64,000 nt of DNA, from contig CP129473.1 of NCBI GenBank assembly GCA_030583745.1, forward strand, positions 76,551 through 140,550, in the 5' to 3' direction. The position numbers were made by a program, and so were the translations under genes. Position 1 is the stretch's first letter; the number at the start of each line of letters is the position of its first letter. The DNA is from Minisyncoccota bacterium (GTDB lineage Bacteria; Patescibacteriota; Minisyncoccia; Phycocordibacterales; BOKC01). This document shows positions 2,993 through 61,148 of the stretch, piece after piece. The notes below the pieces were generated by a model. The model saw only the letters and a program-made list of their open reading frames with translations. It was not told where the DNA came from and ran no database searches.

Positions 2993-5900
2993 ATGTTTTC
3001 TAAATTCAAGACTTATTATGACAAATTAAATCCTGAACAGAGAAGGGCGGTTGATGCGATTGAGGGGCCGGTTATGGTTATTGCCGGTCCGGGTACTGGC
3101 AAGACCCAGGTTCTAGGATTAAGGATTGCCAATATCTTGCGCAAAACCGATACTCCACCTGATGGTATTTTGGCGCTAACTTTTACCGAATCCGGGGTCT
3201 ATTCAATGCGTGGACGTTTGGTAGAGATAATCGGTGCCGACGCCTATCGAGTCAATATTTTTACTTTTCACAGTTTTTGTAATGAGGTGATAAGAAGTTA
3301 TCCGGATTTTTTTCCAAGGGTTGTCGGTGGCAACACCGCTTCGGAGGTTGAGCAGATTCAGATTTTGGAAGAGATAATTGATAATTCAAATTTTGATAAA
3401 ATCAAACCCTTCGGAAATCCTATTTTTTACATAAAACCAATTCTTTCGGTAATCAGGGAATTGAAAAGAGAAAACATCGGGGTTTCTGATTTTAAAAAAT
3501 CTATTCTTGATTATGAAAAAAGAAACAGGCCAGAGACCCCATCCTCATTAAAAAGAAAGTCAATCGAAGACGAAGATTCAGAACACCTTAGAAAAAACCG
3601 AGAGCTTTGCGAGGTTTATGAGCGTTATGAAAAAGCTCTTCACGAACGCTCGCTTTACGATTATGAAGATATGATACTTGAGGTGGTTCGGGCCTTGGGA
3701 AAAAACAAAAAGCTTTTAGCAGAGCTTCAAGAGCAATATTTGTATATTTTGGCCGATGAACATCAAGATGCTAACCGCGCCCAAAATCGAATTCTGGAAC
3801 TGCTTTTAGGTTTTCATAAATCACCGAATATTTTTATTGTTGGCGATGAGAAGCAGGCGATTTTTCGGTTCCAAGGCGCCTCTTTGGAGAATTTTCTCTA
3901 CTTTAAAGAAATTTATCCTGATGCTTTAATTTTAACTTTGGAAAAAAATTATCGCTCGCCGCAAGGGATTTTGGACGCCTCACATTCTTTGATAGAAAAA
4001 AATTCAGTAAATGATCCAATGTTGCGTCGACGCCTTGTTTCTGTTTCCGACCCGCTTTCAAATAATCCAAAAATTTTTCTGCGAGAGTTTAGCAAGCCAA
4101 TTTTTGAAGAATCGTTTATTGCTGAAGATATATCAAAAAAAATTAAAAGTGGGATTAAACCTTCCTCAATTGGAGTTTTTTACCGAGACAATAATGATGT
4201 TTTTTCGATTGCAAACTCTTTGCAAAAAAAAGGTGTTCCGTTTGAAATATATTCCGGTCAACGTTTGTTTCTAGATGAAAACATTAGAAAAATACTTTCT
4301 TTGCTTCGTGCGATTGACCGTTTTGGTGACGACGAACTTTTGGCCGAAACTCTTTTTATAGATTTTCTAAATATTGATATTTTGGATGTTTTTAAGGTTT
4401 TGGAATATTGCCGGCGAAAAAAAATTAGCTTGCACGACTGTCTCCGTTCTCCAAAAATTTTAGAAAAAATAAATCTGGAAGATCAAAAAAATATTCTGTC
4501 TTTTTATGAATTACTGAAAGACTTGTCCAGAAAGGCTGATAACCAAAATCTAATGGATTTTCTGGAGAACTTGATTGAGCGTTCTGGATATATTAAATTT
4601 GCTTTATCCAACAAAAATTCGTGGGAGGAATTAAATAAGCTCGAAGCTTTCTTTGGGCAGGCCAGAAAATTAGCGCAAAATCATAAAGATGCGAAGTTGT
4701 CCGATCTTGTAAGTTTTTTAAATTTACTAAAACGTTATGATGTCTTTTTAAAGGTCCCAGACTCTTATGGACCGAAAAAGGAAGCTGTAAATTTAATGAC
4801 GGCCCACAGCGCTAAGGGGTTGGAATTTGATTACGTTTATATTACCGGACTTTTTGACGGTCATTGGGGGCATCGTAAAAGGAGGAAGAATTTTAATCTT
4901 CCAATCGATGTCTTTTTAGAAGTCGGACTTGAGGATGAACGCCGGCTTTTCTATGTGGCTTTGACTCGGGCCAAGAGAGAGATCTTTTTGAGCTTTTCCC
5001 GTGAAGACCAAAATCAAAAACTTCGTTTGCCTTCCCAGTTTATTTCGGAAATTAATCCAAAACTAGTCAAGGAAATTAAGACCGCCTCACTTGAATCCGA
5101 ATTCTTGAAAAAAGTTGTTTTGAAAAAGCCGGTGAAAAAGCCCGCAGAGAACGATATTTTTAAAGACGAAGTCTTTTTGGCAAATATGTTTTTTGATCAA
5201 GGGCTTTCGGTCAGTGCTTTGAATAATTATCTAGAATGTCCGTGGAAATATTTTTTTGAAAATCTCCTGCGACTTCCTAAGGCGCCGAACAAAAATCAGA
5301 TGTATGGCACCGCGGTCCATTTGGCTTTTGAAGAATTTTTTAAACGATATCGCAACAATGAAAAACCAAACTCCAAAGACTTAATAGTTTTTTTTGAAAA
5401 TGCCTTAAGAAGACAACCTTTAGATAAAAATGATTACGAAGATGCTTTGAAAAAAGGTAGAAAATCACTTTCAGCTTATTATGATTTTTATAAAAACAGT
5501 TGGCCAAAAAATATCAAGACCGAGTTTACTATAAATGGTGTGATTTTGGGTGAGGTAAAAATTGGTAGTAAAAAAAGGGAATTAGTCCTGCGCGGCAAGC
5601 TTGATAAGCTAGAATTTATTGGGGTGTCTGATAGGGAAGTTAATGTCGTTGATTACAAGACTTCTAAACCAAAGAGTCGTAATGATATACTCGGAAAAAC
5701 CAAACATTCTTCGGGCAATCTTTACCGTCAGCTCGTATTCTACAAACTACTTTTAAATCAATTTGCCGATGGGCGATACAAAATGGTGTCTGGCGAGATT
5801 GACTTTATTGAGCCGAATCAAACCGGTCGTTTCAAGAAAGAGAAGTTTTTTATTGGAGATAATGAAGTCGAAGATTTAGTATCGCTTGCAAAAGAAAAAG

Positions 5901-5998: not shown

Positions 5999-6682
5999 TT
6001 AGATATTTTTTAGCGCTTCCTCCACGACTTGTTTGGCGCTTTCATAAGGTAGGGCACCCGGAATAACTGCCATCGGTTCATTTTTAGCGTTTACAATCAA
6101 AGTGTAAGGTGTGCCTTGCGCACCGGCATTTGCGGCATTTTGTCTTTCAGCCAAAATCTTTTCTTCAAATTTTCTGCTTTCTTGGCATGTTCTAAATTTT
6201 TCCATATCTAGCCCTACTCCTTTTGCAACAGTTTCTATAGAAGCACTGACAGGAAATCTGGCGTTGTCGTTTTTAGCGGTAAACATAGCATCAATAAATT
6301 TCCAGAACATTTCATTTCCTCCTTGGTCGGCGGCGCATTCCGTAGCATGGGCTTCAGTGACTGATTCGGGTCCCAATATTGCAAAGTGACGATAGACCCA
6401 AGCTACTTTGCCTTCCGGCGCGAAATCAGCCATCAACATTTTCATTGTTTGGTGGAAGGCTCGGCAATAAGGGCATTGGGTATCAGAATACTCGACAAGT
6501 TTTATTGGAGCACTCGGGTTACCAAATATGTGATCACCCTCACTAACGGGGCTCATCTTTTCGAAAGAGGGCTCTTCAGCGTCATTACTTACTCTGTCAC
6601 CATTTCCTCCAAAATATAAAGCTCCGGCTATCAATCCTCCGGCAATGATTATTGCCAAAGGCAGAAAAATTTTATTTTGCAT
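5999..6682 (-). CDS. DsbA-like thiol:disulfide oxidoreductase (thioredoxin fold, membrane-anchored)
   Basis: It has an N-terminal TM segment and a 'CPYC' active site in a DsbA-like context ('LVEYSDTQCPYCRAFH'). Confidence 0.8.
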   Translation of the reverse strand: MQNKIFLPLAIIIAGGLIAGALYFGGNGDRVSNDAEEPSFEKMSPVSEGDHIFGNPSAPIKLVEYSDTQCPYCRAFHQTMKMLMADFAPEGKVAWVYRHFAILGPESVTEAHATECAADQGGNEMFWKFIDAMFTAKNDNARFPVSASIETVAKGVGLDMEKFRTCQESRKFEEKILAERQNAANAGAQGTPYTLIVNAKNEPMAVIPGALPYESAKQVVEEALKNI

Positions 6683-6725
6683 AGTTTTATCTATTTAAAT
6701 TTTAAAAGGTAAACGAATCTTATCA

Positions 6726-6762
6726 TACAAAAAAATAAAGTCCATTTTGGCGTTTTAGCCGT
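6726..6762 (-). terminator. intrinsic terminator after the exonuclease gene
   Basis: On the minus strand a hairpin 'ccattttaaacggctaaaacgccaaaatgg' is followed by a U-run. Confidence 0.5.
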
Positions 6763-7338
6763 TTAAAATGGCAGTGCCCCGGTTGTTCCGTTTTGTTCAG
6801 ATTCTTGCCAGCTTTTAACATCTAGCTTAATTTCCATAATTTTGCCACCCTCGGCAAATTTGAGCTCGCTGTTTTTTAATGCATATTCGTAGATTTCTTT
6901 GGTAATTTTTACATCATCAAGGCAATATTTTTTGACTTTTTCAACCTCACCTTTTTTCCACCACTCGGTAGCTTGCAGTCCAAAACCTGATTTTCTAATT
7001 CCCAACGTACCTTCGGCAATTTGATCAAGCTTCATACGTCTTCCGAAACTTTCTTTTATCTCTTTCAGAATATCCAAACTTTTGATTTTAGTCAGGTCTC
7101 CCGGATAATATTTGTTTAAGAGCGGGATATCAAAGTGGTCGCTGTTAAAGCCGATTAACAGATTGGCACGGCTTAAAATTGGCCACAGTTTGTTAAATTC
7201 TTCTTCTAAAAAAGTTTTATATTCTCCGCTTCGGTAATCGTATATTCCGACGACCGAAATATCCAGCGCCGCCGGGTTTCTTTCGCCGACATCAGAAAAT
7301 ATATTTTTGGTTTCAATATCAAAAACAATCTTGGACAT
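6763..7338 (-). CDS. DnaQ-like (DEDDy) 3'-5' exonuclease
   Basis: Exo motif I 'FDIETKN', motif II 'FNSDHFDIP' and motif III 'YCLDDV' (Y-x3-D) are present. Confidence 0.7.
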   Translation of the reverse strand: MSKIVFDIETKNIFSDVGERNPAALDISVVGIYDYRSGEYKTFLEEEFNKLWPILSRANLLIGFNSDHFDIPLLNKYYPGDLTKIKSLDILKEIKESFGRRMKLDQIAEGTLGIRKSGFGLQATEWWKKGEVEKVKKYCLDDVKITKEIYEYALKNSELKFAEGGKIMEIKLDVKSWQESEQNGTTGALPF

Positions 7339-7353
7339 AAGAATTCGGATTTT

Positions 7354-8646
7354 TTAGCTCAAATTTTTCTTTACAAAATCTGCTATTTCTCCCACGCTTA
7401 AATCTGTTTCCTCTCCGCTTTCAAGATTTTTAACCTTAAATCTGTTTGATTTTATCTCATTTTCTCCGAGGCAGACAATGAAAGGTATTTTCTTTTTAGC
7501 TGCAGTTTTTATCTGGTCACCGGTTTTTTTGGTGGTTAAATCTACTGCTGAATTTATTCCTTGTTTTCTTAAATCTTGGGCAAGTCTATTTGCTTCATCA
7601 GTAAATTTCTGATCAAGTCGGCAAATATAGATTTGAGTCTGACTTCTGTAATCAGGAAGCAGGTTGTGGGTTTCTAGAAAATCAAGCAGGGTTACATCTC
7701 CGGCGCCAAAGCCCACTGCCGGTATGCTTGCCTCACCAAAAATTTGCAGAAGTTCGTCAAATCGTCCGCCACCAAATAGCGATCGGCTGTTTTTAGGATT
7801 GGTATCAAATATTTCAAAAATCGTGCCGGTGTAATAATCAAAACCTCGCATCAGATTTTGATTGAACTCAATGTTTTTGATTCCGAACTTGTATAGTCCG
7901 TCGATTAGTGCGGTCAATTCTTTGATTTCCGGACTTTGTTCCCCGAGTAGATCAATCATTTTTTTATTTGAATCCATGATCTCTATAAATCTTTCAGCTT
8001 TTTCTTGTAGTAGAGTTTCTGCTGCGGTTTTAAATTCGTTTTCCGAAATTTTGTCTCTTTTGTCTATAACTTTTGAGATTTTATATTTTTGTTCAGAATT
8101 AAGGCCGAGTTTTTCAAAAGTCATTTCGGCGACTTTTCTGTTATTGATGATTATTTTGAAATCCTCATCTTTGGCGCCAAGGTTTTTTAGAAGTGAGTAG
8201 GCCAGTATTAAAATTTCCAAATCGGCCTCTCTCGGCTCTCCACCAAAAATATCGACATTTAGTTGGAAGTGTTCTCTCAGGCGACCTCTTTGAGTATTTT
8301 CGTATCGGAAGAGGTTGGGGATTGAGTACCAGCGTAAGGGGAAAGCCAAATCCCTTTTTCTTTTTGCGACCATTCTGGCCAAAGTCGGCGTCATCTCTGG
8401 GCGCAGTGTTACCTCTCTTTCTCCACGGTCTAAAAAAGTATAGGTTTGCTCATTAACTATTTCTTCACCACTTTTGGCGCGATAGAGTTCGGCCGGCTCA
8501 AGAATCGAAGCCCCGTATTCTTCGTAGCCAAAACTTTCTACCGTTTCTCTCATTTTTTGGAAGAGGTATTTCTGAATAAATAAGTCCTCGGGATAAAAAT
8601 CCCGGACCCCTTTGTATGGTTCGGTGTTAACCATTTTTTTGCTCAT
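7354..8646 (-). CDS. hisS: histidyl-tRNA synthetase
   Basis: The protein aligns with HisRS throughout, including 'VRDFYPED' and the class II motifs 'TLRPEMTPTLARMVA' and 'GGGRFD'. Confidence 0.95.
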   Translation of the reverse strand: MSKKMVNTEPYKGVRDFYPEDLFIQKYLFQKMRETVESFGYEEYGASILEPAELYRAKSGEEIVNEQTYTFLDRGEREVTLRPEMTPTLARMVAKRKRDLAFPLRWYSIPNLFRYENTQRGRLREHFQLNVDIFGGEPREADLEILILAYSLLKNLGAKDEDFKIIINNRKVAEMTFEKLGLNSEQKYKISKVIDKRDKISENEFKTAAETLLQEKAERFIEIMDSNKKMIDLLGEQSPEIKELTALIDGLYKFGIKNIEFNQNLMRGFDYYTGTIFEIFDTNPKNSRSLFGGGRFDELLQIFGEASIPAVGFGAGDVTLLDFLETHNLLPDYRSQTQIYICRLDQKFTDEANRLAQDLRKQGINSAVDLTTKKTGDQIKTAAKKKIPFIVCLGENEIKSNRFKVKNLESGEETDLSVGEIADFVKKNLS

Positions 8647-11903: not shown

Positions 11904-12404
11904 ATGCCGAATAGCGAAAATCTGATGGAAATCTTCGAAAGGCAGATAGGGGCTGGTTTCAGGTTTGTGGATAAGGTGGTTAAGATTGATAAGGATGAAG
12001 GAACTATAATCACAACATTCGACTACTCGCTTGAAGACGAATCCAAACACTTCCTGCGCGACCATTTTTTGGGTAGACCGGCCATGCCGCTTTCTCTCAT
12101 CATTGAGATGATGGCACAGACCTGCGGTTTGTTTGTTGCAGGTGTTCTCGGAAACGGCAAGTGTTTCGTTGTCCGTTATGACAAGTGTCAGTCCGGTAGC
12201 GAGCTCGTTACTCCGCCGGTTCAGCTAGTTATCACAGCGAATTTGTTGAAAAGGAGGGGGCGGGGCACTAGAAGCTTATGGATATTTGCCGTCAAGGTGG
12301 AAACTGATCAGGCGAAGAGTGTCGGCCAGGGCGAGATCACACTTTTCGCCGGAGTTGGTTCCTCGAGATCTTCGGAAGAGCTTCAAGACGAGATTCGAGA
12401 CTGA
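11904..12404 (+). CDS. FabZ/FabA-like hotdog-fold dehydratase
   Basis: 'FRFVDKVVKID…DHFLGRPAMPLSLIIEMMAQTCG' matches the FabZ active-site region 'HFPGxPVMPGVLxIEAMAQ'. Confidence 0.7.
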   Translation: MPNSENLMEIFERQIGAGFRFVDKVVKIDKDEGTIITTFDYSLEDESKHFLRDHFLGRPAMPLSLIIEMMAQTCGLFVAGVLGNGKCFVVRYDKCQSGSELVTPPVQLVITANLLKRRGRGTRSLWIFAVKVETDQAKSVGQGEITLFAGVGSSRSSEELQDEIRD

Positions 12405-48214: not shown

Positions 48215-48421
48215 GTGTTAGGCACAGTTGTGGATAACTTTCTTTTCAGTATTTTGGAATTTTGTGGTATATTTTCCCTTGAAGTGGGATAAAGTGGGAA
48301 ATATGAAAATAGTTAAGAGAACTTACACTGTCCATTTTAAAAACAACAAGCTCCCGCTTGAATTCCTGGTTCTTTGTAATAAGAAAATTGGTCGGAGGGT
48401 CAAAGTTAAACGAGCTTAAAT

Positions 48422-53221: not shown

Positions 53222-53359
53222 TAAAAATTTTTGTTTAAGATGTGGTTTGCTAGTTGGCAAAGAGAGAAAAAGAGAAGGTTACTTTTTCATTCCCTCGCCA
53301 TACAGCGCGCCTTCGGCGCGCCCAGATTTTGCGCTTACTTCCGACCAAGTTTCTGAATG

Positions 53360-53603
53360 TGACGATATTATAGCCTTTGCTCGAACCTATTTCGAGTCAA
53401 AGACCGACTGACTTCGCACGCGCGGAGCGCGTGGTGGCTTGGAACTACATCGTACGCTCCGATCGCGTGGTGATGCCAACTCATGCTGCCAGCGCCTCGA
53501 CAAGCTCGGCGCTCCGCCCTCGCCCCGTTTCCGCTCTCCATGCTTTTTCTTTTTTCGCGGGGGGATTTTTTTAAAAATTGAATGGGCGGAAAACGGGGCT
53601 CGG
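53360..53603 (+). repeat. inverted repeat IR244 left copy
   Basis: It is 100% identical to the reverse complement of 59256-59498. The track ORFs 53377..53574 (+) and 59284..59481 (-) give identical 65-aa translations. Confidence 0.9.
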
Positions 53604-54750: not shown

Positions 54751-56238
54751 CTATTTTATTCTCAAAAATGGTTTGCTAAGGGTTAAGCGATAATCTCCAA
54801 AAAACTCTTTTATCGTCTTTCTGGTCCTGTGTTTTTCAATGTATTGATCTAAATAAGTGAGTAGTTCTTTTTCAACCTCGACGAAGCTGTCTGGGCAAAT
54901 AGATTTGTAATGATTGACCCAACCGCCAGCAAAAGATTTGTATGCCTTAATTACTTCTCCAAAATCAAATTTTTTGACGATACCAACATTTACAATTTCG
55001 CGCTCAAAAGTGTTTTTAAATTCCTGGATTGCCTCCTTGGGAATGAAAAGACTATTTTTCGAAATACCAACCCCAAGGAATTCGAAACTATTTCCATCAA
55101 TATTTAATAACTGTGTTTTACTACCAACCTCAAGTGGGTGTAATTTCAATTTAAGTTTCTCGCTTCCTGATTTAATTAACTCATATACATTATTTGCTTG
55201 ACCTTCACTTTTTGAAAGAACGATCATGTCATCAAGGTATCTGAAACCCTTGCACCCTTTTACTTTGTTAGGAATTTTATCAAGTGGTAAGGCGTAATAA
55301 CTTGAGAGAAATGGTGAGTATGAAAGACCCTGCGGAATGCCAGTGGTCTTTAGTTTAAGGTGTCCAAATGTTCCATGAAAATCTGAATCTGCCTCAATTT
55401 TATTTTCTATGGATACCTTTATTAATCGAAATAATCTGCGTTGATCTTTGCCTCTGAATTTTTTACTCAGTTGCTTTAATAAAATACTTCTATCAATGGA
55501 TGAGAAAAAATCTTTAAAATCTAATTTTAAAATATAGCGAGCCTCGCCATTTTTTAAAGCTCTCTGTATTTCATTGAGTATTCGCTTACATTCACTGGTG
55601 TCTTTTTCTTTCTTAATACCAAGTCCAAGTGCACCGTATTCCTCTAAGGCTGGTTTTAGAATATTACAAACTTTTGGAAATACGGCTGATAAAACGATCC
55701 GGTCTTTTGAAGAAGGGATAAGAAGGGGTCTATATTTTCCGTTAGATTTTCTTATTTTCAAACCAGAATATGGTAAGAAAGAAAATCGCCGTAATTCTTT
55801 CGAGTAGAATTCGGCTACACTTATCTTCTTTATGTATTTCCCTAGATCATTTAGCTCCCGCTCCTCTATTCCTGAAAATCTTTTTAAATCTGAAAAGTTT
55901 TTGCGAAATACTTTACGTCTCAAACTCTTAAATGCACTTGCGATTTGTTCTTGAGTTAAAAGCAGTTGCAGGTTCACATAATTTTCTATGATAGACGACC
56001 TCACTGGACTCGAACCAGTGCATGTTCCGAAAGATCGTGCTCCCTTAAGGGTAGAGGCTACTGCCGAAGCGATAGCCTCACCATTAAGGGTACTACTTTT
56101 CAGTCCGTTCGTCAACCGAAGTTGATAGACTTTCCTAATCGGTAGGTGGCGACCTGCAAGAGTAAAGTTTATGGCGTGCATAATTCTTTTCCCTCGCAGG
56201 AAGTCGTGAGCCGAAGCCCACTGTAAAATATTATACAT
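54751..56238 (-). CDS. group-II-intron-like reverse transcriptase with maturase/X (thumb) domain, not embedded in an intron ribozyme (G2L-type)
   Basis: RT motifs 1-7 are present: 'NGKYRPLLIPSSKDRIV', 'LKLDFKDFFSSI', 'GIPQGLSYSPFL', 'FRYLDDMIVL' and 'LHPLEV…'. The X-domain 'AGGWVNHYKS' is also present. No D1-D3 or D5/D6 intron RNA is found; flanks are occupied by other genes. The first ~85 codons of the track ORF overlap structured RNA (see findings). Confidence 0.8.
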   Translation of the reverse strand: MYNILQWASAHDFLRGKRIMHAINFTLAGRHLPIRKVYQLRLTNGLKSSTLNGEAIASAVASTLKGARSFGTCTGSSPVRSSIIENYVNLQLLLTQEQIASAFKSLRRKVFRKNFSDLKRFSGIEERELNDLGKYIKKISVAEFYSKELRRFSFLPYSGLKIRKSNGKYRPLLIPSSKDRIVLSAVFPKVCNILKPALEEYGALGLGIKKEKDTSECKRILNEIQRALKNGEARYILKLDFKDFFSSIDRSILLKQLSKKFRGKDQRRLFRLIKVSIENKIEADSDFHGTFGHLKLKTTGIPQGLSYSPFLSSYYALPLDKIPNKVKGCKGFRYLDDMIVLSKSEGQANNVYELIKSGSEKLKLKLHPLEVGSKTQLLNIDGNSFEFLGVGISKNSLFIPKEAIQEFKNTFEREIVNVGIVKKFDFGEVIKAYKSFAGGWVNHYKSICPDSFVEVEKELLTYLDQYIEKHRTRKTIKEFFGDYRLTLSKPFLRIK

Positions 56239-56303
56239 TAACCGGCTTATTCAGCAATAGAAAATCTGTGGATAACTCGCTGTAGTTTTCGGTATTCTTT
56301 CGG

Positions 56304-56325
56304 TTATAATATGCTTATATTATAA
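56304..56325. promoter_or_regulatory. palindrome TTATAATAT-gctt-ATATTATAA in the divergent RT / LexA-MTase promoter region
   Basis: It has 9-bp inverted arms and lies 20 bp upstream of the LexA-MTase ATG. It is a candidate operator. Confidence 0.4.
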
Positions 56326-56345: not shown

Positions 56346-57914
56346 ATGAGATCTCTTACCATAAGACAAAAGCAAATATTCGATTTCATTGACTCCTATA
56401 TAGCGAAGAAAGGCATTTCTCCCACAATAGACGAGATAAGGAAAAAGTTTAAATTAAAATCAGTTTCTACTATTCATCAGCATATAAACGCTTTAGTTGA
56501 AAAAGGTTATTTAGAAAAAGATGAAAAATCCGTCCGAGGTCTTAAAATAAAAGGAGAAACTGACTCTATAAGAATTCCCGTTGTTGGAATGATTGCCGCC
56601 GGACAGCCGATTGAAGCAATAGAGAATATTGAGAGACATATCGGTGTAAGCCGAAGCGTAGTGAAAAATAGCGATGATCATTATGCCTTGCGAGTAACTG
56701 GAGAGAGTATGATTGATGAAGGTATTTTTGATGGAGATATTGTTATCATAAAAAAGCAGTCAGTGGCTGAAAACGGACAAACTGTAGTAGCAATAATCGA
56801 TGACAATGAGGCTACGTTGAAAAAAATATATAGGGAGAAAAACAGATTTAAACTTGAACCGGCAAATCAGAGCATGCTCCCTTTTTATCGCAAAGAGGTG
56901 GAAGTGCGAGGTGTCGTTGTGCAGGTTATCAGAAATATTGATAATCGTCCCGAGGATAAAAAAATTCAGAAAAATGGCTATAAGACCGTTGACTTGTTTG
57001 CTGGTGTAGGAGGAATACGTCTCGGATTTGAAAAAGTCGGTTTTGAAACTGTGTTTGCAAATGATTTTGAACCGCAATGCAAGGACACTTATGATCTTAA
57101 TTTTGACACCTCAAAGCTCGTCGTAGAAGACATAAGAAAAATTGGCATCGAAGATTTGCCTGAATTTGATTTTCTCCTCGGGGGTTTCCCGTGCCAGGCG
57201 TTCTCTATTGCCGGATATAGGCAGGGATTTGGAGATGAGAAAGGTCGCGGAAATTTATTTTTTGACATAGCAAGAATGTTAGAAGCAAGAAAGCCGACAG
57301 GATTTCTTTTAGAGAATGTAAAAAATCTAATGGGCCATGACAAAGGCAGGACTTTCAAAATTATTAAAGAAACTCTTGAGGGTCTAGGTTATCATGTCCA
57401 TGCAAAGGTTCTCAACACTATGGAGTACGGAAACATTCCGCAAAATCGCGAGAGAATTTATATTGTTGGATTTAGGGACAAAAAGCATTTTGAAAGGTTT
57501 GAATATCCTAAGCCCGTTAAACTAGCTGTAAGCGTTACCGACATGCTAGAGGACGAGGTGGATAAAAAATATTATTACAATGGAAAACCCCTATTCCCAA
57601 GGTTAAAAGACGATGTTAAAAAAGAAGGAACGGTTTATCAGTGGAGGAGGAAATATGTCCGGGAAAACAAAAGCGGAGTATGCCCAACGCTTACCGCAAA
57701 TATGGGAACCGGCGGGCATAATGTTCCGATTATCAAAGATAAAAAAGGAATAAGAAAACTAACCCCTTTAGAGTGTTTTAGAATTCAGGGATTTCCAAAA
57801 CACTACAAGCTTCCAGAATTGGCTGACTCTGCACTGTACAAGCAGGCAGGAAATTCGGTTTCTGTGCCAGTAATAGAAGCCGTGGCAAAAGAGATGCTGA
57901 ACGCCGTTAGTTAG
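56346..57914 (+). CDS. LexA repressor (HTH + S24 peptidase) fused in-frame to DNA (cytosine-5)-methyltransferase
   Basis: Residues 1-~200 align with E. coli LexA. This includes the cleavage-site 'IAAGQP', catalytic Ser 'TGESM' and Lys 'TLKKIY', and 'GVVVQVIRNI'. Residues ~205-522 carry C5-MTase motif I 'FAGVGGIRLGF', motif IV 'GGFPCQAFS' and motif VI 'LLENVKNL'. Confidence 0.85.
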   Translation: MRSLTIRQKQIFDFIDSYIAKKGISPTIDEIRKKFKLKSVSTIHQHINALVEKGYLEKDEKSVRGLKIKGETDSIRIPVVGMIAAGQPIEAIENIERHIGVSRSVVKNSDDHYALRVTGESMIDEGIFDGDIVIIKKQSVAENGQTVVAIIDDNEATLKKIYREKNRFKLEPANQSMLPFYRKEVEVRGVVVQVIRNIDNRPEDKKIQKNGYKTVDLFAGVGGIRLGFEKVGFETVFANDFEPQCKDTYDLNFDTSKLVVEDIRKIGIEDLPEFDFLLGGFPCQAFSIAGYRQGFGDEKGRGNLFFDIARMLEARKPTGFLLENVKNLMGHDKGRTFKIIKETLEGLGYHVHAKVLNTMEYGNIPQNRERIYIVGFRDKKHFERFEYPKPVKLAVSVTDMLEDEVDKKYYYNGKPLFPRLKDDVKKEGTVYQWRRKYVRENKSGVCPTLTANMGTGGHNVPIIKDKKGIRKLTPLECFRIQGFPKHYKLPELADSALYKQAGNSVSVPVIEAVAKEMLNAVS

Positions 57915-58956
57915 TTGATATCTTATCAAACAGATCCACAAGATCTTGCGTGGAGTCATTGCCAAATTTCTCAAGCGTGTATTTTAGCGCAATGTTCTCA
58001 TTCCATTTAGAGCTCCGGTCAAATTTATTGAGGTTGATGACAATGTTACCTTTTTGAACAGGAATTCCACTAATTCTAATATCATCTGTAGAATGTATAT
58101 ACAAAGAGCCTTTGTTTTTCTTTAGAATTGTTATCTCTGTTTTGTTTTCACTTTCAATAGCGAACGGAAGACAAACATATCCTTTATCGTATGTATAGGT
58201 AAACCTATTGTTTCCGTCCAAAACCATTTTCTCTTTAAGATTTGCCCCGCGAGGATCTTTATTTTCAGCGCCGGCAAAATAGTACGGGCTCACATCCTTT
58301 TTGCAAAGCGTGAAATTATTTTGAACCTCGCCTTTTGTGTAAATGCCAATTAAGCGCATTGTGCCAACTTTTGCGGTTTTAGAAACAGTAGAATGAGGAA
58401 TAATTTGTTTGTCTTTGTCGCTTTCAATAAATTCGTCGCTCATTTTAAGCTCCTCAAAATATTTGTCAGCAAATGTTTCTTCTTCAAACAGCGATGTCAA
58501 ATAATCTCCCTCCAGATCGGACTCAATAAATGCATAATAATCATCAATCATTTGCGGTTCCCGTACCCCAAGTAACGCCTGATCTTTCCGCACAACTTTA
58601 ACCTCGATCCTCGGCATGCCATCAATATTTGTCCAGGTTCCGTTATTGTATTTTACAAAAGGAATAGTCTTTCCGTCGGAAGTTTGAAGTCCGAGAATAT
58701 CAGGCGCGTTCTTATCAGAGTCGTTAGCATATATAAAATAATCTGAAATAACTTTATATTTGTTATCCTCCAGCAATTTTTCAAAGATAACTGTTTCTGC
58801 GATTTTATTGAACCACCTTTCAATATAACCGCCGATTAAATCTCTTTTAGCAGAAGTGCCCTGGCGATGAAGCGGGTCGCCTTTAAACTTCATTAGAATG
58901 AAGTAAACAATTTTTCTAAGATCATCTTTTGTTATTTCTATTTCCGGGTATTTCAT
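57907..58956 (-). CDS. putative type II restriction endonuclease (PD-(D/E)xK)
   Basis: It converges on and overlaps the MTase by 8 bp. It lies directly downstream of a C-protein gene. A candidate 'PD…(E)VK' motif is 'APDILGL…RIEVKVV'. Confidence 0.55.
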   Translation of the reverse strand: MKYPEIEITKDDLRKIVYFILMKFKGDPLHRQGTSAKRDLIGGYIERWFNKIAETVIFEKLLEDNKYKVISDYFIYANDSDKNAPDILGLQTSDGKTIPFVKYNNGTWTNIDGMPRIEVKVVRKDQALLGVREPQMIDDYYAFIESDLEGDYLTSLFEEETFADKYFEELKMSDEFIESDKDKQIIPHSTVSKTAKVGTMRLIGIYTKGEVQNNFTLCKKDVSPYYFAGAENKDPRGANLKEKMVLDGNNRFTYTYDKGYVCLPFAIESENKTEITILKKNKGSLYIHSTDDIRISGIPVQKGNIVINLNKFDRSSKWNENIALKYTLEKFGNDSTQDLVDLFDKISTN

Positions 58957-58958
58957 AA

Positions 58959-59171
58959 TTATTTGAATCGCAAAAGCTCATCAGGATCCACATCCAGAGC
59001 GTCTGATATCTTTTTTATATTCTCAACAGAAACATTGCGCTCGCCTCGTTCAATATCGCTCATGTATGTTCTGTGCAGTTTCGCTTTTGTAGCGAGTTTT
59101 TCCTGCGAAATACCCGCCTCCAAGCGAAGTTCTTTAATTTTCTGTCCTAATTGTTTCTTAATATTTGACAT
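58959..59171 (-). CDS. controller (C) protein, XRE-family HTH
   Basis: The 70-aa product contains 'LGQKIKELRLEAGISQEKLATKAKLHRTYMSDIERGERNVS'. The stop abuts the downstream REase start. A C-box lies upstream. Confidence 0.75.
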   Translation of the reverse strand: MSNIKKQLGQKIKELRLEAGISQEKLATKAKLHRTYMSDIERGERNVSVENIKKISDALDVDPDELLRFK

Positions 59172-59228
59172 GCAAAGTCTGGTAACTTATTGACTACATC
59201 ATATCTTTTTGAGTAAAATAGGGCTACA

Positions 59229-59249
59229 GACTATAAGTGACGTATAGTC
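59229..59249. promoter_or_regulatory. C-box-like palindrome GACTATA-N7-TATAGTC
   Basis: It lies ~58 bp upstream of the C-protein start and matches the GACT…AGTC C-box consensus. Confidence 0.55.
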
Positions 59250-59255
59250 TAAGCC

Positions 59256-59498
59256 CGAGCCCCGTTTTCCGCCCATTCAATTTTTAAAAAAATCCCCCCG
59301 CGAAAAAAGAAAAAGCATGGAGAGCGGAAACGGGGCGAGGGCGGAGCGCCGAGCTTGTCGAGGCGCTGGCAGCATGAGTTGGCATCACCACGCGATCGGA
59401 GCGTACGATGTAGTTCCAAGCCACCACGCGCTCCGCGCGTGCGAAGTCAGTCGGTCTTTGACTCGAAATAGGTTCGAGCAAAGGCTATAATATCGTCA
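59256..59498 (-). repeat. inverted repeat IR244 right copy
   Basis: It is the perfect reverse complement of 53360-53603. Confidence 0.9.
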
Positions 59499-59578
59499 CA
59501 ATTTAGAACTTTTCCCAATGCGCGTCGCTCCGCGACGAATTCGGACGGAACTGGCGCGCCGAAGCGCGCGGATTTGTC
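59496..59578 (+). repeat. inverted repeat IR83 left copy
   Basis: It is the perfect reverse complement of 60994-61076. It contains the GCGCGC-UUCG-GCGCGC hairpin and lies in the recombinase promoter region. Confidence 0.9.
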
Positions 59579-59604: not shown

Positions 59605-61092
59605 ATGTCCAAACCAAAATATTTTCTTTACGCTCGCAAATCGACGGAAGATGATGACAAGCAGGTCATGTCTATCGAGGCTCAACTTTTTGAATTGCGA
59701 GAGTTTGCACGTAAAGAAAATCTTGAAATTGTTGAGACATTTCAAGAGTCGAAAAGCGCAAAGACTCCGGGCAGGCCTCTGTTCAACAAGATGATGGCGA
59801 AGATAGAGGAAATGGAGAATGTCGGCATTCTTGCGTGGCATCCGGATCGTCTCGCGAGAAATAGCGTGGACGGCGGTCGCATCATCTATCTTGTTGACCA
59901 GAAGAAAATCACGTCTTTGCGCTTTCCGACATTTTGGTTTGAACCCACCCCGCAGGGGCTCTTTATGTTGCAAGTGGCGTTCGGTCAATCGAAGTATTAC
60001 TCCGACAACTTGGTGGAGAACACCAAGCGCGGGATGCGCCAAAAAGTGCGGCGAGGCGAGTGGCTCACAAAAGCGCCGTTCGGGTACGTGAACAATCCGA
60101 AGACGAGGAATATCGAACCGCACCCGACTCATTCCAAAATCATCGTCCGCGCTTTTGAGGAGTATGCGAAAAAATCGCACACGCTGAAATCACTCGCCGA
60201 TTTTTTGGCGCTTCACGGAGTAAGTACTTCCAAAGGTACGCCACTTGGCAAAGCTTCCATCAAACGAATGCTGACCAACAGGGCATATTTGGGATTTGTG
60301 AAGCATAAGGAGGAATGGTTTGACGGAAGCTTTGCGCCAATTCTTTCCCCGAAATTGTTTGAAGCCGTGCAAAAGGTATTAGCGACAAGAGAACGCCCGC
60401 GCAAAACAAAGACCGGCCACAATTTTCCTTTCGTTGGACTTTTTCGTTGCGGAGAGTGCGGGAGCATGATCACTGCGCAGTGGGCGACGGGGAAATCAGG
60501 AGGACGGTATCGGTACTATCGGTGCACGAAAAAGAAAGGAAATTGTGACCAAGGGTATATGCGCGAGGAATCTCTTGTCGCAGACGTAAAGGAACGGCTC
60601 CAAACAATTTCGCTTTGCGATGAGGATACTGATTATATGCTCAAGTGCGTTCTGCAATTCGAGCAAGAGGAAAACCGCTCATCGCAAAGCCGCGTTCAAA
60701 ATCTTTCTTTCAAACTCAAAGCAAGCGAGGAGAAGCTTGACCGTCTTGTCTCGGCCTTTATTGATGGTGACATTCCAAAGGAAATTTATCTCGCCAAGAA
60801 GGACAAGCTGATGCGGGAATCACTTGCTTTGCGGGAACAGCGGAAAGATTTTGAACGCGAGGGAAAGAATTGGGTCGAACCCCTACGGGAGTGGATTTTA
60901 GATACGAAACAAGCCAATTTTTTGAGCTCATCCGCTGATTTTCACAAAATCAGCTCCTTCGTCAAAAAAGTTGGAACGAACCCTACGGTTCGTGACAAAT
61001 CCGCGCGCTTCGGCGCGCCAGTTCCGTCCGAATTCGTCGCGGAGCGACGCGCATTGGGAAAAGTTCTAAATTGTGACCCTATCGGGATTTGA
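59605..61092 (+). CDS. large serine recombinase (resolvase/integrase)
   Basis: The N-terminal resolvase domain 'YARKSTEDDDKQVMSIEAQ' carries the catalytic Ser. A recombinase domain and zinc ribbon 'CGECGSM…YYRCTKKKGNC' follow, with a C-terminal coiled coil. Confidence 0.9.
   Translation: MSKPKYFLYARKSTEDDDKQVMSIEAQLFELREFARKENLEIVETFQESKSAKTPGRPLFNKMMAKIEEMENVGILAWHPDRLARNSVDGGRIIYLVDQKKITSLRFPTFWFEPTPQGLFMLQVAFGQSKYYSDNLVENTKRGMRQKVRRGEWLTKAPFGYVNNPKTRNIEPHPTHSKIIVRAFEEYAKKSHTLKSLADFLALHGVSTSKGTPLGKASIKRMLTNRAYLGFVKHKEEWFDGSFAPILSPKLFEAVQKVLATRERPRKTKTGHNFPFVGLFRCGECGSMITAQWATGKSGGRYRYYRCTKKKGNCDQGYMREESLVADVKERLQTISLCDEDTDYMLKCVLQFEQEENRSSQSRVQNLSFKLKASEEKLDRLVSAFIDGDIPKEIYLAKKDKLMRESLALREQRKDFEREGKNWVEPLREWILDTKQANFLSSSADFHKISSFVKKVGTNPTVRDKSARFGAPVPSEFVAERRALGKVLNCDPIGI
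60994..61076 (-). repeat. inverted repeat IR83 right copy
   Basis: It overlaps the last ~30 codons of the recombinase and ends 3 nt inside the tRNA-Glu 3' end. Confidence 0.9.
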
Positions 61093-61148
61093 ACCCGAGT
61101 TTTCGCCTTGAGAAGGCGACGTCCTAGACCAGACTAGACGATAGGGCC
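61074..61148 (-). tRNA. tRNA-Glu (CUC)
   Basis: On the minus strand it reads GGCCCUA-UC-GUC…GAC-G-UCGCC-UUCUCAA-GGCGA-AAAC-UCGGG-UUCAAAU-CCCGA-UAGGGUC-A. Acceptor stem is 7 bp (one G·U), D-stem 3 bp. Anticodon loop is UUCUCAA, giving anticodon CUC. No CCA is encoded. Confidence 0.75.

Follow-up and report, generated by a model that had tools for sequence, protein, structure and literature searches.

We analyzed a 64,000-nucleotide stretch of the genome of a Minisyncoccota bacterium (GenBank contig CP129473.1, positions 76,551 to 140,550; hereafter the window, in whose own numbering coordinates are given), in which a single gene (56346..57914, + strand) encodes a 522-residue protein that joins a complete LexA repressor to a C5 cytosine DNA methyltransferase. 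Comparison with homologues indicates that this fusion architecture is real and under selection, and that the design is widespread in Patescibacteria (the Candidate Phyla Radiation, CPR). The reading that we favor, and hold to be probably correct, is that the protein is an autorepressing regulatory methyltransferase of the SsoII/Ecl18kI kind, acting as the M subunit of a type II restriction-modification (R-M) system, which LexA self-cleavage would make damage-inducible; DNA binding, cleavage and induction are predictions from sequence. Support for this reading comes from the architecture and its conservation, from a conserved operator that covaries with the recognition helix of the LexA part, from the R-M context of the gene, and from avoidance of a target site.

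Architecture and conservation of the fusion

The gene is one uninterrupted frame of 522 codons, with neither stop nor shift in the list of open reading frames (ORFs), and its identity was established with Pfam, NCBIfam and homologue searches. Pfam recognized full-length domains in the order LexA winged helix-turn-helix (HTH), S24 autopeptidase and C5 cytosine methyltransferase. The winged-HTH DNA-binding domain occupies residues 1-65 (56346..56540, +; PF01726 LexA_DNA_bind, 8e-18, full profile) and carries the recognition helix STIHQHI. It is followed by the autopeptidase and dimerization domain (residues 78-192; 56577..56921, +; PF00717 Peptidase_S24, 3e-30), which holds the self-cleavage site Ala85-Gly86 (56598-56603) and the catalytic residues Ser121 (56706-56708) and Lys159 (56820-56822). 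A variable linker (residues 198-211; 56937..56978, +), with a mean identity of 24% among homologues as against 64-82% in the domains, leads to the HhaI-like methyltransferase domain (residues 212-518; 56979..57899, +; PF00145 DNA_methylase, 4e-92). This domain contains motifs I (DLFAGVGG), IV (GFPCQ), VI (ENV), VIII (QNRER) and X (GNS), and the catalytic Cys283 of motif IV is encoded at 57192-57194.

Both halves of the protein were also recovered in full-length comparisons. The lexA equivalog TIGR00498 of NCBIfam was matched over profile positions 1-202 of 203 with 199 bits (equivalog cut-off, 110.95 bits), and the dcm model TIGR00675, also of NCBIfam, with 340 bits. Among PDB sequences, E. 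coli LexA (1JHH) matched residues 1-199 from end to end (4e-33), and M.HhaI, the best solved relative, matched residues 205-516 from end to end with its target recognition domain (TRD) included (7e-61). An AlphaFold2 model of the fusion (pLDDT 72.7, pTM 0.58) revealed three folded units and a low-confidence linker, with pLDDT below 50 at residues 200-209. Judged by its HTH, its cleavage site and dyad, and its equivalog score, the N-terminal part is a LexA, though the protein does not have the ~200-residue size of a stand-alone one, and every sequence test that we applied for a C5 methyltransferase was positive. The first-pass annotation had described a complete LexA (HTH, Ala-Gly site, Ser/Lys dyad) joined by a ~15-residue linker to a C5 methyltransferase, and each part of that description held; the linker is flexible and the methyltransferase complete. 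As a side observation, the PADLOC type II methyltransferase model PDLC03272 spans residues 155-521 (421 bits); since it starts inside the S24 domain, its REBASE-derived training set probably already holds N-terminally clipped members of the family.

The same design was found throughout the protein databases. A search of 5.8 billion protein clusters, of which the best 120 matches were examined, returned the same three domains in all 120 at 72-79% identity. The fusion-bearing clusters, which number more than 120, derive from NCBI, JGI, ENA and Logan and carry taxon labels such as Parcubacteria, Moranbacteria, Taylorbacteria and Paceibacterota. At NCBI they bear the name 'transcriptional repressor LexA', and JGI lists them as 'DNA (cytosine-5)-methyltransferase 1'. 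In a survey of one genome per GTDB species, at least 529 stretches encode a relative. The best 80 loci, which we analyzed further, all cover fusion residues 1 to ~521, and 79 of the 80 complete copies are intact, with lengths of 513-537 residues. Almost all of the best clusters and of these 80 species-level genomes are labelled Patescibacteria (identity 62-79%), the labels of a few fusion contigs assigned to other taxa being taken as deposited.

An artefact could in principle produce such a protein by a frameshift, by an assembly join, or by read-through of adjacent lexA and methyltransferase genes, and unusually long inverted repeats do lie nearby in the assembly. The uninterrupted ORF nevertheless recurs at nearly constant length in more than 120 protein clusters, and 79 of the 80 loci, each assembled independently, contain it, which effectively refutes that explanation. 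The expectation that the architecture would prove unusual was borne out in one sense and not in another. No description of a LexA-methyltransferase fusion was found in the literature searched (a 2017 study of the SOS network in Patescibacteria, outside that search, might mention it), and while the sequences are already in databases, their architecture and regulatory meaning appear to have gone unremarked. The fusion is not rare, however; it belongs to a large patescibacterial family that spans four methyltransferase classes.

Mean identity, computed by part, was 57% for the HTH, 70% for the S24 domain, 79% for the methyltransferase core, and 82% for the TRD, with 33% for the hinge next to the low value of the linker. 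Pairwise distances in the LexA part and in the methyltransferase part were correlated (r = 0.80), which indicates that the two halves evolve as one unit. Little or no variation was seen among the 79 C5-type homologues in the Ala-Gly site, at Ser121 and Lys159, or in the loop G.IAAG.PIEAIE, a pattern indicating that the self-cleavage apparatus is under strong purifying selection.

Fusions to methyltransferases of other classes were revealed when the LexA part (residues 1-205) was searched against 1.84 billion cluster representatives. Relatives above ~46% identity were almost all long proteins with LexA at the N-terminus, and all 44 long relatives (at least 330 residues) hold LexA_DNA_bind, Peptidase_S24 and a DNA methyltransferase, which is of the N6_N4_Mtase type in 30, Eco57I/N6_Mtase in seven, D12 (Dam-like) in five and C5 in two. 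The cleavage residues (Ala-Gly, Ser, Lys) are likewise invariant in the 44 fusions of other classes.

This conservation bears on the proposal that the LexA part is a static DNA-binding and dimerization module, that is, an autorepressor like SsoII that has lost its response to RecA and keeps its S24 residues for folding, dimerization, or slow RecA-independent turnover. The logic of regulatory methyltransferases needs no cleavage (PMC2760811, PMC12707154), RecA docking might be obstructed by the bulk of the C-terminal domain, and the case for cleavage of the fusion is built from sequence. A dead protease, however, would not be expected to stay so conserved, both in the 79 C5-type fusions and in the 44 of other classes, while the hinge and the linker drift to 24-33% identity, and we consider the static module improbable. 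Because the cleavage machinery is invariant in 79 homologues, it is plausible that DNA damage detaches the DNA-binding domain of the fusion.

The control region and the LexA lineage

An alignment of 79 distinct homologous upstream regions revealed a conserved layout, cTGTGGATAAC - ~6 nt - TTGnnn (-35) - TTTCGGT-N4-TTTCGGT - TATAAT - nnAATTGTAGC. The candidate operator in the window is the direct repeat TTTCGGT-ATTC-TTTCGGT, with a period of 11, at 56287..56304 (+), which fills the spacer between the -35 and -10 elements and abuts the -10 hexamer TATAAT (56305..56310, +); homologous promoters keep this hexamer as TATAAT or TATACT. TTTCGGT-N4-TTTCGGT has no other exact match within the window. 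The relaxed pattern TTCG[GTC]-N6-TTCG[GTC] occupies the same place in the core promoter in 62 of the 79 homologous promoters, and in 960 kb of sequence (the loci together with the window) it is almost confined to fusion promoters.

The half-sites of the repeat change with the recognition helix. Helices of the form ST[IV]H[EQ]H are paired with TTCGG, those of the form STAHHH..KK with TTCTA or TTCGA, and SG[VI]YQH with TTCTG or TTCAG in one half-site. This covariation, the strongest evidence available, suggests that the LexA HTH reads the direct repeat. A stand-alone lexA of Shapirobacteria has TTCGG-N6-TTCGC between its -35 and -10 elements, TTGACT and TATCAT, and Patescibacteria are among the lineages listed in which LexA recognizes a direct repeat (Erill laboratory, PMC7739468). 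The fusion therefore resembles stand-alone LexA (TIGR00498; E. coli 1JHH, Thermotoga maritima 3K2Z) in its collinear full-length match and in having a candidate operator in its own promoter. It differs in its 310-residue C-terminal methyltransferase and its separate LexA group, and its operator would be a period-11 direct repeat whereas the classical LexA operator is a palindrome.

A palindrome had in fact been put forward as the operator in the first-pass annotation. The AT-rich sequence TTATAATAT-GCTT-ATATTATAA (56304..56325, no strand assigned) is real and ends 20 nt before the ATG; it has perfect 9-bp arms and contains the -10 hexamer, so that a protein bound there would repress. The part of the claim that fails is its role. 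None of the 78 other distinct homologous promoters contains the palindrome; they carry ...TTATAAT-nnAATTGTAGC... and conserve the direct repeat instead. Helix covariation and the Shapirobacteria lexA tie the LexA lineage concerned to direct repeats and not to palindromes (see also PMC7739468), and AT-rich intergenic DNA yields palindromes easily. That TTATAATAT-N4-ATATTATAA serves as the operator is, in our judgment, very improbable. A further block, AATTGTAGC(G/A)(C/T)AAA, is conserved 4-6 nt after the -10 hexamer in most C5-type fusion promoters. The AATTGTAGC block is missing from the window, where the AT-rich palindrome stands in its place; it may mark where the transcript starts, belong to its leader, or be bound by a second protein.

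An exact DnaA-box-like 9-mer, TGTGGATAA (56267..56275, +), borders the conserved control region on its upstream side and is present in 57 of the 79 distinct homologous promoters. In the 960 kb the 9-mer (read as TGTGGATAA or TTATCCACA) occurs 82 times, and 52 of these occurrences fall in the fusion promoters, which together make up ~12 kb, where they sit 20-23 nt upstream of the operator. Since the 9-mer lies just upstream of the -35 element, its position suits an activator or a co-repressor. Agreement with the consensus suggests that it is bound by DnaA, and the box probably adds a replication-linked signal. The perfect 9-mer is fixed in the LexA-methyltransferase promoters of loci L004-L084, L206, L329 and L331. 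Other copies in the window were found at 48229-48237 and 11966-11974, and one copy lies 193 nt upstream of mraZ.

One additional gene carries an operator of this kind. At locus L073 a DpnI-like gene for methyl-dependent restriction (~3400-4190, -; likeness judged by eye) is divergent from the fusion and has its own direct-repeat box fused to TATAAT, TTTTCGTTTTTTGTTCGTGTATAAT, which hints that the LexA part may be able to control other defense genes. A scan of viral contigs with the operator pattern gave only chance-like hits among the matches listed.

The LexA parts of the fusions form a group of their own. They are 51-71% identical among themselves and 40-49% identical to stand-alone LexAs, and the LexA of a Shapirobacteria fusion is 60-63% identical to those of other fusions as against 46% to the stand-alone LexA of Shapirobacteria. 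Moreover, on a single contig (L061) two different LexA-methyltransferase systems lie 4.5 kb from each other. One is of the N6/N4 type, contains an SPPY motif and is truncated where the contig ends (2-1474); the other is of the C5 type (6001-7563), and a convergent ORF follows each. At five loci with LexA fused to N6/N4, Eco57I-type and D12 methyltransferases, a period-11 direct repeat lies between -35 and -10 in every case, with half-sites TTCGG, TTCTA or ATCGG, and the promoter contains a DnaA box in four. Partner genes at these five loci encode Alw26I-type and MwoI-type endonucleases, second methyltransferases, and a controller (C) protein.

The separate grouping and the two copies on one contig favor the view that the fusion LexA is a dedicated R-M module rather than the single LexA of its host. 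They argue against the alternative that the fusion is the organism's sole SOS master repressor, with a genome-wide regulon reached through the direct-repeat box and the methyltransferase as a passenger, for instance where an R-M system has attached itself to a regulator that the cell cannot lose, an alternative that partly overlaps the favored reading and differs from it in the size of the regulon. A sole repressor would agree with the full-length equivalog score and the name LexA at NCBI, with an operator of the same type as that of stand-alone patescibacterial lexA, and with the listing of Patescibacteria among direct-repeat lineages (PMC7739468). The 64-kb window contains no second lexA, and the chromosomal site that the window shares with locus L004 suggests vertical descent. 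Flanking genes, however, vary nearly everywhere and are often defense genes, and only ~2 further operator-like sites occur in the 960 kb around the 80 fusions, one at the DpnI-like gene and none at repair genes, although this last argument is weak because the sampling is local and not genome-wide. On balance we find a sole SOS repressor unlikely. More tentatively, we regard it as possible that a distinct LexA lineage has been captured by R-M systems across Patescibacteria and joined to at least four unrelated methyltransferase classes behind a stereotyped promoter of DnaA box, direct repeat and -10 element, which would yield R-M systems that sense themselves, are tied to replication through DnaA, and exchange their endonucleases freely.

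Restriction-modification partners and probable target site

The fusion is the M subunit of a type II R-M system, a membership that the first-pass annotation had anticipated, and its predicted partner nuclease is encoded next to it. A convergent gene for a putative restriction endonuclease of 349 residues (57907..58956, -) overlaps the 3' end of the M gene by 8 nt. This protein has no match in Pfam, NCBIfam, PADLOC or PDB sequences, and its motif PD86...E118-V-K120 is invariant in 10 homologues. The gene has no direct-repeat box and is preceded by its own C gene and putative C-box. The C protein (70 residues, HTH_3; 58959..59171, -; PF01381, 4e-18; PADLOC Control_protein, 2e-27) is encoded upstream of the endonuclease gene on the same strand, and ~55 nt further upstream lies a palindrome of the GACT...AGTC type, AGACTATA-N7-TATAGTCT (59228..59250, -), which by analogy with C-controlled R-M systems may act as the C-box. 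A terminator scan between the M and R genes returned nothing convincing. The arrangement is that of PvuII, Esp1396I, AhdI and Csp231I, in which an HTH_3 controller gene with such a palindrome lies upstream of the endonuclease gene and is co-transcribed with it. In those systems M is under promoter methylation, the C protein, or no control, whereas here an extra LexA-based layer would act on M.

The convergent arrangement is the rule. A convergent ORF abuts the stop codon of the fusion in 73 of 78 loci, with stop codons that almost always touch or overlap. Seven families that share no relationship with one another are represented by these ORFs, among them PDDEXK_5, RE_Bsp6I (GCNGC) and a family with the NgoFVII C-terminal domain (GCSGC), and the Bsp6I and NgoFVII families are the partners of the fusion in 33 of the 76 loci that could be classified. 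On the methyltransferase tree the endonuclease families are dispersed; the nearest neighbor of a locus has an endonuclease of the same family in 19 of 75 cases, against a fraction of 0.17 expected by chance. Despite the seven partner families, the TRD of the methyltransferase barely varies (82% mean identity). These patterns suggest that the R gene has been replaced in place, repeatedly, around a fixed M gene.

The families of the partner endonucleases, together with site avoidance, point to the target. GCNGC has an observed/expected ratio of 0.61 in the pooled loci, the lowest of the 16 XYNY'X' palindromes, and of 0.52 in the window, where it is the second most depleted. Each of the seven endonuclease groups shows the depletion of GCNGC, and no depletion was seen for GCGC (~1.0); note that GGNCC and CCNGG are also low in these counts. 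The target is therefore probably GCNGC or a subset of it, methylated to 5-methylcytosine. Specificity for GCGC, as in HhaI, was considered and rejected, given that GCGC is not avoided and that partner endonucleases include the Bsp6I and NgoFVII families; the likeness of the fusion to M.HhaI extends over the whole domain, but its specificity is probably not that of HhaI. The Bsp6I and NgoFVII families belong, with Fnu4HI, to a group that targets GCNGC or GCSGC, and we know of no enzyme of the HhaI, Bsp6I, Fnu4HI or NgoFVII groups that has a LexA domain. A divergent vsr-like gene (133-142 residues, judged by eye) lies ~95 nt from the ATG of the fusion in nine loci (L007, L012, L026, L042, L049, L053, L055, L079 and L080), where it would share the DnaA-box region. 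The product of vsr, a very-short-patch repair endonuclease, usually accompanies C5 methylation.

Genes upstream of the fusion, unlike those downstream, differ almost everywhere (64 clusters in 75 loci), and they are often defense-like, including patatin, SEC-C proteins, PD-(D/E)XK proteins and the DpnI-like gene. In the window the upstream gene encodes a defense-type reverse transcriptase (RT; 54751..56238, -; PADLOC RT_UG17 (DRT), 3.9e-39), which scores below the cut-off for group II intron maturases. The first-pass annotation had raised the coupling of the fusion to this RT, an idea that the survey of loci does not sustain; the RT adjoins the fusion only in this window, and we ruled it out as part of the fusion unit. 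The window and L004 agree in the chromosomal position of the fusion, which has mraZ-rsmH-ftsL-PBP-murF ahead of it and yqeY-rmuC behind it, and the endonucleases of the two differ.

The surroundings of the gene in the window show several other features. A 257-nt inverted repeat (53347-53603 and 59255-59511; 98% complementary) brackets a 5.65-kb block that comprises, besides tRNA-Arg(tct) and a stretch of GC-rich non-coding DNA, the genes for the RT, the LexA-methyltransferase, the endonuclease and the C protein. The adjacent gene, for a large serine recombinase (59605-61092), is bracketed by a second inverted repeat of 89 nt (59490-59578 and 60994-61082), the right arm of which extends into tRNA-Glu(ctc) (61073-61148). 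GC content is 0.46-0.58 in the repeat flanks and 0.34-0.41 around them. The syntenic locus L004 is without RT, inverted repeats and recombinase. The bracketed block may represent a segment capable of inversion, an element that has integrated, or an artefact of the assembly. Searches with Rfam, both of the window as a whole and of the GC-rich stretch downstream of the RT (53.2-54.7 kb), returned tRNAs only.

Proposed damage-inducible regulation of modification

Methyltransferases with a fused HTH constitute an accepted class of regulators (PMC12707154, PMC2760811), and an R-M review of 2025 makes no mention of LexA (PMC12707154). In M.SsoII and M.Ecl18kI, an N-terminal DNA-binding domain on a flexible linker binds the enzyme's own promoter and autoregulates the R-M system (PMC2760811, PMC3978073, PMC12707154). 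The fusion resembles these enzymes in being a C5 methyltransferase with an N-terminal DNA-binding domain and a putative operator at the M promoter. Other regulatory C5 methyltransferases are M.EcoRII, M.MspI and M.ScrFIA. The domain of SsoII and Ecl18kI, however, is a plain HTH of ~70 residues with no protease and no known signal input, whereas the fusion has a whole LexA of ~200 residues. In those two systems R and M diverge from an intervening operator through which R is also activated, whereas in the present one R converges on M and is served by a C protein of its own. Because Pfam assigns the N-terminal region of the fusion to LexA_DNA_bind and Peptidase_S24, common descent with the HTH of M.SsoII is unlikely.

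From these comparisons we infer a mechanism that comprises DNA binding, RecA-dependent cleavage and induction, together with DnaA binding, transcriptional interference, and a physiological role for the system. A whole LexA would have been built onto the N-terminus of a methyltransferase. The S24 domain would mediate dimerization and place two winged HTHs on TTTCGGT-N4-TTTCGGT, and since this direct repeat fills the -35/-10 spacer of the gene itself, the fusion would repress its own synthesis, as do M.SsoII and M.Ecl18kI. Damage, including the double-strand breaks that the partner endonuclease would introduce where sites are under-methylated, would lead to RecA filaments and to self-cleavage at Ala85-Gly86, which would split the HTH from a dimeric S24-methyltransferase. 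With repression lifted, synthesis of the methyltransferase would rise, and DNA damage would probably raise protective methylation in this way. The outcome would be a damage-triggered alleviation of restriction, a negative feedback against self-restriction. Upon entry into a naive cell, the unrepressed promoter would supply methyltransferase early, while the C protein would independently delay the endonuclease. The DnaA box upstream of the promoter would provide an added, replication-linked input, and in a tail-to-tail, overlapping M/R pair without a terminator, induced transcription of M could interfere with and dampen transcription of R.

Several points weigh against this mechanism. Helix and operator covariation rests on few clades, so that few independent events are involved. 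The -35 element of the window is weak, reading GTAGTT (~56282-56287) where homologues have TTGnnn, and a simple promoter scan made no call there. The 310-residue C-terminal domain could hinder either the docking of RecA filaments or dimerization, and the AlphaFold2 model, which is only moderate, is silent on this. A search for recA found it neither in the window nor in any of the loci, and it is on general grounds that RecA is expected in this genome. The evidence comes from the loci and their surroundings, and a broader LexA regulon may exist, as may a second LexA that stands alone.

The proposed outcome has parallels. Restriction alleviation of type I systems is ClpXP-dependent, and tisB and symE are toxin-antitoxin genes repressed by LexA. 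As in restriction alleviation and in SOS-controlled toxins, damage would tip the balance away from self-cleavage. The known cases, however, rely on proteolysis of the restriction subunit or on a separate LexA acting in trans, whereas here the sensor would reside in the methyltransferase polypeptide.

The fusions also have consequences for annotation. Genes of this family are named either 'LexA' or 'cytosine methyltransferase', and surveys of regulons or of R-M systems that depend on one label will misread them. The DnaA box points to a possible link between replication and methylation. R-M systems must keep methylation ahead of cleavage, and known controls include C proteins, promoter methylation, antisense RNA and HTH-bearing methyltransferases; to our knowledge, none of these takes a DNA-damage signal. 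If the favored reading is true, a methyltransferase with a built-in damage sensor would represent a new control principle, by which an R-M system senses the damage that it causes, and the SOS paradigm would be linked to defense and epigenetic systems. For Patescibacteria, such a principle would also be relevant to the question of how numerous R-M systems are handled in very small genomes.

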